The notes beneath the pieces were generated by a model. It did no database searches and had not been told where the DNA came from. It worked only from the letters and a program-made list of their open reading frames with translations. DNA of 24,000 nucleotides from Planctomycetota bacterium. Its GTDB lineage: Bacteria; Planctomycetota; UBA1135; GCA-002686595. The number at the start of each line of letters is the position of its first letter. Position 1 is the stretch's first letter. The position numbers and the translations under genes are program-made. The stretch covers positions 71,219 to 95,218 of the forward strand of contig JBCBNC010000003.1 of NCBI GenBank assembly GCA_039821985.1, read 5' to 3'. Shown in pieces: positions 11,507-13,963 of this stretch.

Positions 11507-13963
11507 TCAGCGCTCTCCGCGCGCCGGTTGTGCTCCGACGGCTCGGCGCAGCTCCACGAAGCGCGCCTCGCCCGGGCCCGCGATCCCGGCTCCGGTCCAT
11601 TTCAGGTCCGTCCCGTCGAGTCCCACCTCCACGGTCGCGATCGCGCGCGGCGGGACGAGGGCACGGAGCGCGGGCGCGGCCCCGTGGCCGTCCTCCACGA
11701 TCGTCCCGGGCAGGGAAAGGCCCACGGACTCGACCCGAAACTCGACGTCCCCGCGCTGCGCCTCGGCCGCGTCGCGCGGCAGCGGCACCGTGATGCCGCC
11801 CACAGGGACCCGCGGCTGGTAGCGGTCGTTCGGCCCACTCGTGTGGACCCAACTCCCGAGGTCGGTGAGGCCGAGCTGCACCGGCCGGCCGGAGTTGGCG
11901 CCCACCGATCCGAGCGGCAGGGATGACTCGACGTCGCCCCAGGCGGTCGCGGGGGGCGCTCCCGGGAGGCGCCACGCCTCTTCCGCGGTCAGCAGGAACG
12001 CGTGCGTGGAAGGATGGGCGCCCGTCAACGAGAGCACCGCGCCTGCCGTTTTCGCTTCGACGACCAGCGGCAGGAAAACGAGTGCTTCCGTTGGCGTGAC
12101 GATCCGAACCCCGAGCTCCGTCGAGGCCTCGGCCATCGCGCGCGCGGCGGCGCTCGAGCTCAGCTCTTGATCGTGCTGCCGCGCCGCCCGAGAGGCCGGC
12201 CCCAGCGCCTCTTCCGTCGCGTCGCAGGGGACACGCCCCCGGAGGGTGACCGGCCTCTGGCCCCGCGGCGGATAGCGCAGGAGGTCGCTGCGGACGACCG
12301 CCTTCGCACCCAGGCCGGACATCGGCGCGTCCCAGGGATCGATCGGCTCCAGCTCGACCGTTTGCGGCTTCGGGACGACGGCGAACATCGCGACGATCCC
12401 CTCGTGCGGCCCCTTGCCCGCGAGAGCCACGCCCCATCCGTGCGCCGCGGGGTCGTCGGGGAGGACAGCGATGAAATGCTCTCCCCACGCGGTGCGGGAG
12501 CGGAGACGGCAGCTGCGCATGTCGCGAACGGGGTCGACCGTCAACGGCTGCCGGTCGAGCACGCGGACGCGGTCGTCCCGCCGGTCCACCGCGACGAGCC
12601 AGACCGATCCATCGTCCTGGTCCTTCGGGCCGTAGACCTCGAGCCAGTCCTCGGCGGGCTCGAGATGGACCTTGGGCCGCGCGACGTACGCGTCGCCCTC
12701 GCGGCGGAACGTGCGGGCGCGGACGACGGCCTCGGCGGGGAGCGCGCCCGGGTGATCGATGCGGACGACGATGCGGGAGGGGACCTCGCTCGGGGAGGCG
12801 TAGCTGCCGACCGGGACGCCGTCGAAGCGGGACCAGGTCACGCTCGACGCGTGCAGGTCCCCGAGCTCCGCTCGGTCGCGGCGAGCGCTGATGCGCACGG
12901 TCGCGAGCTCGTCGAGGTCCGGGACGAGGTAGGTGTCCACCACGGGCTCGACCCGGAAGGCGATGGACTCGCGCGGCGGTTCGGTGCCCTCTGCGCGGAC
13001 CGTTCTCTGCTCCTCGCGGCGTGTCCGCGAACGAGGGCGCGGTGTGTGTTCCGCGTTCTCCGCCTGTGGCGTCGCGACGGCGCGCCGGGCTCTTGGTGGC
13101 CGCTGGCCCGGAGAGGCTTCGATGCCTTCCAGTTGGACCGTTCGCACGACGACGGGCTCGAGCTCGGCGGGGGCGCGCTCGACCTCGAAGATCGGGGAGG
13201 CAGCGTCCGAGCGCGTGAGCCATGCCGCGCCGGCGAGCGCCATGACCGCCACGCCCGCCGTGAGCGCTCGGGCGCCCCCGGCTGCCGCCGCCTCGGCTCC
13301 GTGCGAGGCGGCCGTCCGCACGACCTCCTCTCGGACGGTCGCGAGAAGGTTCGCGCGCAGCGTCTCGTCCAGCATGCCGGGCCCCACGGCGAGGAGCGCC
13401 GACGCGCGGTACAGAGCCCCGGGCTCGCGGCCCCGCTCGAGCAGCTCGCGGAGGCGGGCGAGGCCCCGGTGGAGCTGGGAGCGCACGGTGCCCGGCGGTC
13501 GCCCGAACCGTTCGGCGATCTCGAGTGGCGCGCGCCCCTCACCGACGTGCGCGTGCACGACGGCCCGGTACGGCTCCTCGAGCGAGTCGATCGCGTCTCC
13601 GACCAGCCGCGCGACCTCGTCCGCGGCAGCAGCGCGCTCGGGGTCGGGTGCCGTCGAGGGGACCTCCACGAGCGCGTCGCCGCCCGGGCGCGTCCGGGCG
13701 TCCCGGCCCCGGCGCGCCCTGTGGACGAGGATGCCCACGAGCCACGGCCGGAGTTCACGCGTCCGGTCGAAGCGGGATCCGCTCTCGATGGCGGCCAGGA
13801 AGGTCTCCTGGAGCGCGTCCTCCGCCCTGGCCGGGTCGCGCGTCAGGTGCGTCGCGAGGGCCAAGAGCTCGGGCGCCAGCGCGTCGAACACGCGTCCGAG
13901 GGCGCGCGTATCGCCGCGGTCGACGAACTTCAGGAACTGGCGCTTCGGGTCTCTCGGGCTCAT
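11507..13963 (-). CDS. ECF-type sigma-70 factor fused to a transmembrane segment and a ~570-aa C-terminal extracytoplasmic domain
   Basis: Start at ATG 13963 (MSPRDPKRQFLKF...).
- **Sigma region 2:** AEDALQETFLAAIESGSRFD...LRPWLVGILVHRA.
- **Sigma region 4:** LEEPYRAVVHAHVGEGRAPLEIAERFGRPPGTVRSQLHRGLARLRELL.
- **Membrane segment:** a single hydrophobic helix (ALTAGVAVMALAGAAWL, aa ~232-249).
- **C-terminal domain:** 569 aa with no motif I recognise.

There is no in-frame stop between the modules. Confidence 0.8.
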   Translation of the reverse strand: MSPRDPKRQFLKFVDRGDTRALGRVFDALAPELLALATHLTRDPARAEDALQETFLAAIESGSRFDRTRELRPWLVGILVHRARRGRDARTRPGGDALVEVPSTAPDPERAAAADEVARLVGDAIDSLEEPYRAVVHAHVGEGRAPLEIAERFGRPPGTVRSQLHRGLARLRELLERGREPGALYRASALLAVGPGMLDETLRANLLATVREEVVRTAASHGAEAAAAGGARALTAGVAVMALAGAAWLTRSDAASPIFEVERAPAELEPVVVRTVQLEGIEASPGQRPPRARRAVATPQAENAEHTPRPRSRTRREEQRTVRAEGTEPPRESIAFRVEPVVDTYLVPDLDELATVRISARRDRAELGDLHASSVTWSRFDGVPVGSYASPSEVPSRIVVRIDHPGALPAEAVVRARTFRREGDAYVARPKVHLEPAEDWLEVYGPKDQDDGSVWLVAVDRRDDRVRVLDRQPLTVDPVRDMRSCRLRSRTAWGEHFIAVLPDDPAAHGWGVALAGKGPHEGIVAMFAVVPKPQTVELEPIDPWDAPMSGLGAKAVVRSDLLRYPPRGQRPVTLRGRVPCDATEEALGPASRAARQHDQELSSSAAARAMAEASTELGVRIVTPTEALVFLPLVVEAKTAGAVLSLTGAHPSTHAFLLTAEEAWRLPGAPPATAWGDVESSLPLGSVGANSGRPVQLGLTDLGSWVHTSGPNDRYQPRVPVGGITVPLPRDAAEAQRGDVEFRVESVGLSLPGTIVEDGHGAAPALRALVPPRAIATVEVGLDGTDLKWTGAGIAGPGEARFVELRRAVGAQPARGER

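Follow-up and report, generated by a model that had tools for sequence, protein, structure and literature searches.

How would an extracytoplasmic function (ECF) sigma factor that is joined, within one polypeptide, to a membrane span and a large outer domain be kept off RNA polymerase, and which genes would it switch on once free? The question is raised by a gene at positions 11507-13963 of a 24,000-nucleotide stretch of a Planctomycetota metagenome-assembled genome (MAG), analysed here as a whole and called the window (GenBank assembly GCA_039821985.1, contig JBCBNC010000003.1, positions 71,219 to 95,218). The encoded protein combines sigma regions 2 and 4, one hydrophobic segment and a beta-rich domain of ~485 residues, its order of parts is conserved in diverged orthologues, and the gene stands behind a promoter-like box and directly ahead of an aminolipid gene cluster. 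As the likeliest mechanism we propose, with confidence just short of even, a single-pass membrane-tethered ECF sigma that would be released by regulated proteolysis and would drive both its own gene and the aminolipid operon.

One reading frame from sigma factor to ectodomain

The coding sequence lies on the minus strand, as do all window features given below, and runs from an ATG at 13963-13961 to a TGA at 11509-11507 (818 amino acids and a stop); read on the plus strand, the same interval holds no gene. We place the start at ATG 13963 because the orthologues all open with M(L/S/R)xRDPK, and the same N-termini rule out a longer start at GTG 14113, which would add 50 proline-rich residues. With a G+C content of 73-75%, the window has long open frames on every strand. 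The fusion frame stands out as the coding one, with a G+C fraction over its whole length of 0.89 at the third codon position (GC3) and 0.57 at the second, and GC3 stays at 0.85-0.97 through the junction of sigma part, linker and hydrophobic segment (40-codon windows), the only dip, to 0.70, falling in a charged stretch at residues 281-320.

Orthologues were gathered by a word-indexed search and an exhaustive search of representative sequences, and come from separate metagenome or MAG assemblies. Eight of them are full-length fusions of 774-826 residues with the identical order of parts (P0003-P0006, P0058, P0059, P0061 and P0062; protein, locus, contig and genome records are cited by our own handles). 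Their overall identity to the window protein is 30-38%, and the linker varies in length while the frame is unbroken in every one. The first-pass annotation had read sigma part, membrane span and large domain as a single open reading frame (ORF), allowing that a sequencing error might hide a stop codon between the sigma and membrane parts. A sigma gene and a membrane-protein gene merged through sequencing or assembly error would fit with an alternative +2 frame that is open from residue 142 to the end, although such frames are frequent at 73% GC; it is contradicted by the eight fused orthologues with their differing linkers, by the unbroken GC3 and by a 100%-identical record (P0002) with seven member sequences. 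The independent assemblies and the GC3 continuity thus exclude a hidden stop or frameshift for practical purposes, and we regard an artefact as very improbable.

Judged by its motifs, the sigma module is complete and typical, that is, a bona fide ECF. Region 2 (residues 26-87; 13703-13888) matches Pfam PF04542 Sigma70_r2 (E 4e-11) and contains AEDALQETF and PWLVGIL, typical ECF 2.2-2.4 motifs, and region 4.2 (residues 120-171; 13451-13606), with the helix-turn-helix that would read the -35 box, matches PF08281 Sigma70_r4_2 (E 5e-10) and also PF04545. With 67.3 bits, the module clears the 42.9-bit cut-off of TIGR02937, the generic ECF model; the NCBIfam ECF subfamily models, including the planctomycete TIGR02984 and TIGR02989, all stay far under their own cut-offs. 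No Pfam match to sigma regions 1 or 3 was found in the fusion protein, regions 2 and 4 alone being the ECF (group 4) layout, and no other Pfam family reached E<=1 in it, save sub-threshold PhyR_sigma2 and HTH_20 on the sigma regions. Among the orthologues, AEDALQETF, PWLVGIL and GTVRSQLHRGL of the helix-turn-helix are invariant, and a five-sequence alignment with a mean column identity of 56% over its whole length has long invariant runs in regions 2 and 4. The assignment of an ECF sigma thus stands, and the suspicion that the region might lack DNA- or core-binding determinants does not.

Between the end of sigma-4, near residue 177, and the hydrophobic segment, which begins at residue 233, lies a linker of ~55 residues (178-232; 13268-13432), presumably cytoplasmic, for which AlphaFold predicts two helices at low confidence. 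No anti-sigma family (zf-HC2, FecR, RskA etc.) matches the linker or any other part of the fusion protein by Pfam at E<=1, and its sole cysteines are C485 and C580, with none in residues 1-484, which bears out the reported absence of an HxxxCxxC zinc-anti-sigma motif. The earlier description had offered both a membrane-tethered sigma and a built-in anti-sigma; since the linker is short and no anti-sigma family matches, we drop the latter and keep the former as the better description of a polypeptide in which an ECF sigma is joined by one hydrophobic span to a large domain.

The hydrophobic segment itself (residues 233-250; 13214-13267) is uncharged and Ala/Gly-rich, a putative transmembrane (TM) helix by Kyte-Doolittle analysis (best 17-residue mean 1.88) that AlphaFold models as a helix at 233-251, again with low confidence. 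An uncharged run of 18-31 residues recurs at residues ~232-265 in all eight fused orthologues (best 17-residue means 1.75-2.56), with an acidic C-terminal and a neutral N-terminal flank, so that the single hydrophobic helix noted at first keeps its position across the group. An additional hydrophobic peak near residue 620 falls within a predicted beta region. The segment is followed by a mixed-charge, Arg/Pro/Glu-rich disordered stretch (residues 251-333; 12965-13213; 15 Lys and Arg, net charge about -1), where the predicted local distance difference test (pLDDT) is 24-31. As a side observation, an in-frame GTG at 13319-13321 (residue 215), 18 codons ahead of the TM helix and with the Shine-Dalgarno-like purine run GAGAGGAG just upstream, could serve as an internal start for a sigma-less product; several orthologues have Met or Val at residues 214-217, with neither position nor ribosome-binding site conserved, and mostly lack a Shine-Dalgarno sequence.

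The ectodomain, some 485 residues in total and beta-rich, has no Pfam match at E<=1, in line with the ~500-residue domain without recognisable motif of the first-pass annotation. Of two AlphaFold models, one from five sequences (mean pLDDT 46.6) was left out of the fold search and one from seven sequences (mean pLDDT 57.1) was the basis of the modules described here. In the latter, residues 334-444 (12632-12964) form a beta-sandwich with pLDDT 76-90 that carries the invariant VRxDHPxALP...YVARP, with D403/H404/P405 and Y426/R429 among its invariant positions, and the rest (residues 445-818; 11510-12631) is beta-rich with pLDDT 50-70 or lower. Foldseek searches of the PDB returned tandem immunoglobulin (Ig)-like arrays (CnaB-domain pilins, Cna B repeats, complement MG domains) with E as low as 7e-7 and TM-scores of just 0.13-0.17. 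The fold check suggested at the outset thus gave a confident beta-sandwich for the first module and a weak resemblance to Ig-like arrays for the remainder, and the models support a string of beta-sandwiches, nothing more precise.

A sequence-profile search of the PDB with the ectodomain gave no match (best E 1.3). Alignment with the genome's own PF13620 repeats by hhalign yielded a weak match at residues ~535-690 (E 0.01, probability 4%), where the consensus DPFGxPMxG...A.V followed by G.V.L.G...G.H...V is similar to the CarboxypepD_reg signature; this is only suggestive of a degenerate CarboxypepD_reg module, and PF13620 was found at the gene's position neither in the genome scan nor by Pfam search of the protein. 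A helical low-confidence insertion at residues ~575-640 (window ~12040-12240) interrupts the CarboxypepD_reg-like module and is shared solely with P0056, a fragment 74% identical to the window protein, the other orthologues lacking it. The domain is also rare: an exhaustive search of 1.84 billion representatives found eight proteins at E<=0.001, and among 201 genomes of the order it occurs in the window's genome only, plus a weak match in one congener. A word search restricted to the ectodomain returned the fusion protein itself as sole match, a scan of genome contigs returned sigma-domain relatives and no full-length orthologue, and a scan of metagenome contigs returned a single locus, L089.

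Gene order and a promoter-like box

Downstream of the fusion gene, on the same strand, lies an aminolipid cluster (5441-11400) with OlsA-like, DinB-like, TANGO2, alpha/beta-hydrolase-VTT/DedA fusion and OlsB-like genes. The OlsA-like acyltransferase has lyso-ornithine-lipid O-acyltransferase as its best NCBIfam match (3e-41), and the OlsB-like N-acyltransferase also has an NCBIfam match (5e-36), both under the curated cut-offs. The OlsA-like gene probably starts at GTG 11280 (VPLRAPLRLL..., compare MSLRVPLRL... of relatives) rather than at GTG 11400. The same order, from the fusion through the OlsA-like, DinB, TANGO2 and hydrolase/VTT genes to the OlsB-like gene, is kept in L005 (P0006) and L086/L087 (P0062), and in L088 (P0058) as far as the contig extends. 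Because this order is kept at just 33-40% protein identity, it represents conserved synteny, and the placement of the fusion gene directly upstream of the lipid operon, first noted in the window, recurs in these loci.

On the other side, a same-strand ankyrin-repeat gene (14126-15001) is syntenic in L001, L086, L088 and L142, where an aldehyde dehydrogenase, a methyltransferase and the ankyrin gene make up the common upstream side. No terminator-like site was found between the sigma gene and OlsA on the gene's strand, and from this layout co-transcription of the fusion gene with the OlsA/OlsB-like cluster appears plausible. Two more sigma-fusion genes, for proteins of ~970-1120 residues, lie at most 10 kb upstream of the orthologous locus in L086 (1-3381) and L088 (495-5389), the extra gene of L086 being on the opposite strand; sigma-fusion genes thus also cluster locally.

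Upstream regions were aligned on the homologous start codon, which in L004 and L005 is a second ATG nine bases inside the called gene. The alignment contains a (C)TGTAACG box 33 nt (L001, L004 and L005), 34 nt (L003) or 36 nt (L086 and L088) ahead of the ATG, whose counterpart in the window is GCAACG at 13991-13996, 33 nt ahead of the ATG, a candidate -35 element. A -35 element containing AAC is a hallmark of ECF promoters. Some 15-16 bases past the box stands a CGnnA-type pentamer (CGTCA, CGCCA, CGGAA or CGCAC), which leaves 7-11 bases to the ATG; in the window this candidate -10 element is CGCAC at 13971-13975, with a 16-nt spacer. None of the aligned genes has a Shine-Dalgarno sequence ahead of the fusion ATG. 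On the simplest reading, the box would belong to an ECF-type promoter, recognised by the very sigma that the gene encodes, whose transcript has little or no leader.

GTAAC occurs in one to four copies per 8-22-kb locus, counting both strands, and its sole copy is the one ahead of the sigma gene in L001, L002, L003 and L088; GTAACG has 227 copies in the 6.4-Mb genome. A search for GTAAC-N15/16-CGnnA found nothing in the window and picked out no coherent group of sites genome-wide, the window's own GCAACG being too common to serve as such a pattern, and no second copy of the box stands before OlsA in the window, L005, L086 or L088. Among 30 long-extension paralogues GTAAC lies upstream of one only (contig C27), which makes the box particular to the orthologue group of the fusion. 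Two fusion paralogues of a congener, G130 (L143:1-110 and L146:~1400-1500), have a GTTACG box ~35-40 nt ahead of their likely start, which hints at a leaderless layout with a paralogue-specific -35 box as a family trait; the GTAAC of C27 and the GTTACG of the congener would fit such paralogue-specific promoters. Separately, three tandem ~19-nt units (CCTGGATTCCCTGTAGCGG-like) directly precede the fusion gene in L001 (7900-7975), the last of which supplies the CTGTAACG box.

Sigma-less homologues and the wider family

The extension also exists without a sigma part. In P0057 (552 residues) and P0060 (557 residues) the hydrophobic segment stands at the very N-terminus, and the sequence after it aligns with the charged stretch and the full ectodomain. 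P0057 is the ORF at 737-2395 of L089, with an esterase/GDSL-lipase gene downstream; the gene upstream is divergent, and therefore no sigma part exists there, and a CTGTAACG box followed by N15-CGGAA stands 31 nt ahead of the ATG. Similarly, in the congener G130 a gene for a ~558-residue TM-plus-domain protein (L142:9009-10685) fills the syntenic slot between the ankyrin gene and OlsA. A conserved 288-residue gene, homologous (E 1e-23) to the gene preceding the sigma fusion in L086, stops 14 nt before its ATG, too close for a sigma to fit in between; the sigma of G130 that matches the window's sigma module best is 46% identical to it. A 547-residue gene upstream in L086, considered as a source of the sigma-less homologues, has no similarity to them. 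In L142, too, a CTGTAACG box (7461-7497) lies 36 nt ahead of the ankyrin ATG that heads the syntenic row.

Since the counterpart of residues 233-250 is an N-terminal signal-anchor in the sigma-less homologues, an outside location of the domain gains support; the ectodomain is most likely extracytoplasmic, and we infer an N-in/C-out topology. In a maximum-likelihood tree of the ectodomain, which is unrooted, has long branches and is mostly poorly resolved, the sigma-less forms are interspersed and do not form one clade, P0057 and P0060 grouping with the fused P0059 (support 91/98) and the G130 protein standing apart. Two histories would account for this: at least two losses of the sigma module, or its joining to a lipid-locus protein that already existed, as has been proposed for planctomycete ECFs, whose sigma modules may have been joined to pre-existing genes by gene capture (PMC7671368). 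The clear orthology of the sigma modules across all fused forms leads us to prefer, with low confidence, a single fusion and later losses.

The architecture is recurrent in Planctomycetota rather than a one-off, as far as frames and domain matches tell. The window's genome, a 6.4-Mb MAG that is 88.6% complete, has ~62 ECF-like frames, of which ~30 run on for 300-1000 residues past sigma-4 (for example C27:61187-62188, C9:11135-11992 and C40:23551-24357). Most of these have a hydrophobic helix 22-72 residues past sigma-4, often after a shorter gap than in the window protein, and many carry PF13620 repeats in frame. Non-orthologous database matches were Planctomycetota proteins of 850-1300 residues in which a TM helix connects a sigma module to CarboxypepD_reg (PF13620) repeats; the best of them were all of this sigma-1TM-CarboxypepD_reg type, with sigma modules 40-50% identical to that of the window. 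The fusion thus appears, by sigma module and layout, to belong to a large and uncharacterised planctomycete sigma-TM-beta-sandwich family, with which it shares the position of the helix after sigma-4 and the long beta-rich extension; unlike that family, the window protein and its orthologues have no PF13620 match, possess the rare and divergent DHP...YVARP module and are tied to one operon.

The C-terminal extensions of planctomycete ECFs have been described as large and highly variable (PMC7671368), and several ECF groups have membrane-spanning extensions, of which IutY is the only one studied at the bench and none of the cases listed in that review is from Planctomycetota (PMC8999054). IutY, an ECF243 sigma/anti-sigma hybrid of Pseudomonas putida, is freed by regulated proteolysis, by Prc and then RseP (PMC8999054). 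As is also likely for the window fusion, a single polypeptide of IutY runs from an ECF sigma at the N-terminus through one membrane span to a C-terminal part in the periplasm; its sigma is FecI-type, with a FecR-type anti-sigma domain, a TonB-dependent transducer and an iron-uptake context, whereas the window fusion has no detectable FecR domain in its ~55-residue linker, a beta-sandwich array and an aminolipid-operon context. The actinobacterial ECF52 (SCO4117), ECF53 and ECF48 also extend across the membrane to an outside domain at the C-terminal end, and their proteolytic activation has been proposed; in them one or two TM helices follow an anti-sigma module of zinc-finger (ZAS-like) type, and ECF52 ends in a carbohydrate-binding domain (PMC8999054), whereas the window fusion lacks any cysteine before residue 485 and the HxxxCxxC motif, and its sigma domain is unrelated. 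ECF57 matches in its planctomycete-enriched phylum distribution, its multiple copies and its long C-terminal extension, yet has WD40-like repeats and a pair of conserved cysteines that connect sigma-2 to sigma-4 (PMC8999054), for which the window fusion offers neither a WD40 match in Pfam nor a cysteine in residues 1-484. ECF263 extensions have five or seven TM helices, unlike the one hydrophobic run between sigma-4 and ectodomain here. By its sequence, then, the fusion does not have the defining features of IutY/ECF243, ECF52/53/48, ECF57 or ECF263, as those groups are described.

Release, tethering and what the family may reveal

In the mechanism that we consider likeliest, the sigma-2/sigma-4 module would be cytoplasmic, the weak Ala/Gly-rich helix would span the membrane and the beta-sandwich array would face the periplasm. 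Tethering would hold the sigma off RNA polymerase, with no separate or built-in anti-sigma domain involved. Upon an envelope signal the outside part would be trimmed, and a site-2 protease would then cleave inside the helix, freeing a sigma module of ~230 residues. The freed sigma would read its own promoter through the GTAAC-type -35 box, with a leaderless or nearly leaderless mRNA, and the outcome would be raised expression of the fusion gene and of the OlsA/OlsB-like aminolipid operon behind it. We favour tethering with regulated proteolysis because an anti-sigma domain or partner was not found, because the helix is Ala/Gly-rich, because the genome encodes Peptidase_M50 (RseP-like site-2) proteases and because IutY offers a precedent. 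The helix-destabilising residues Ala and Gly suit site-2 proteases.

Several observations weigh against this mechanism. The aminolipid cluster does not adjoin every fusion gene, since convergent unrelated genes follow those of P0003 and P0005 (L003 and L004), and a survey of 20 other family-level genomes, including one congener, recovered its positive control and found the 3.5 kb ahead of the OlsA-like gene free of any sigma gene; the operon therefore needs no such sigma in general. In the window, the gap between the sigma and OlsA genes is 226 nt with the start at GTG 11280 (106 nt with GTG 11400) as against 72-74 nt in relatives, which makes a separate OlsA promoter possible. The window box is GCAACG and not GTAACG, a hexamer common in the genome (3667 copies), and the candidate -10 element is poorly conserved, so that position is the main argument for a promoter. 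The hydrophobic segment is weak (Kyte-Doolittle mean 1.88), and both structure models have low overall confidence. Site-2 proteases are universal, and their presence therefore says little; also, the planctomycete sigma-TM family is uncharacterised at the bench.

The sigma-less homologues bear most directly on another explanation, in which the extension is an envelope protein of the aminolipid locus with a function of its own that was joined to a duplicated sigma module, regulation acting mainly through synthesis and turnover of the fusion. The sigma-less TM-plus-domain protein in the congener's syntenic slot, with its 14-nt gap, the second such copy (P0057 in L089), which keeps the CTGTAACG box and has an esterase/GDSL-lipase gene after it, and the intermixing of sigma-less and fused forms in the domain tree all speak for this explanation. 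As the domain exists without a sigma, the assumption that it is only a sensor is weakened, and it may have its own job in the lipid locus. The fused form, on the other hand, is intact in at least eight diverged lineages with strongly conserved sigma motifs, so the fusion is under selection and no accident, and we think this explanation unlikely, if worth keeping in view. A wholly cytoplasmic protein, whose extension would control the sigma by intramolecular contact as in ECF41/ECF42, would accord with a segment that is short, Ala/Gly-rich and moderately hydrophobic; three points make us consider it quite improbable: the sigma-less homologues use the equivalent segment as an N-terminal signal-anchor, arrays of Ig-like and CarboxypepD_reg type usually lie outside the cytoplasm, and the helices of most paralogues are clearly more hydrophobic (Kyte-Doolittle means up to 2.5).

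Proteolytic release would be dispensable if the tethered protein recruited RNA polymerase at the membrane, acting mainly in cis. ToxR and CadC are winged-helix membrane-bound activators that act without release, and they resemble the window protein in that one chain links a DNA-reading module in the cytoplasm, through a single TM helix, to a sensor in the periplasm (here putative), although the DNA-reading module of the window protein is a sigma factor and not a winged helix. Co-translational insertion of the fusion, OlsA and the DedA fusion would keep the locus membrane-held. In favour of such recruitment, the lack of an anti-sigma domain means that tethering alone may not silence the sigma, and a helical linker of ~55 residues could extend its reach; membrane proteins are the products of both the gene and its neighbours, and the transcript appears to have no leader. 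Nevertheless, we know of no sigma factor that works while membrane-bound, and ~30 paralogues per genome would demand many polymerases at the membrane, so we rate this as rather doubtful. Somewhat more doubtful still is a cis-acting tethered sigma whose ectodomain and mixed-charge stretch would signal conditions in the outer leaflet, such as its surface charge or aminolipid content. If true, it would be a self-contained membrane-lipid feedback loop with neither protease nor anti-sigma factor, and the sigma-less versions would be an ancestral or derived lipid-locus protein without transcriptional output.

ECF sigmas with membrane-spanning extensions are abundant in Planctomycetota, at ~30 per genome here, and the architecture alone will be no surprise to specialists. 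New here are the adjacency to the aminolipid cluster in four further loci, the conserved (C)TGTAACG box and the sigma-less counterparts. Most of the family offers no clue to its targets, whereas this orthologue group does so through its box, its operon position and its sigma-less counterparts, and this context makes the fusion one of the more tractable members. It offers an entry point to how a sigma without an anti-sigma domain is kept off and then switched on, to what beta-sandwich ectodomains sense, and to whether envelope signals control aminolipid synthesis in these bacteria. It also supplies a natural example that bears on a debated idea, the joining of planctomycete sigma modules to pre-existing genes or their loss from them.

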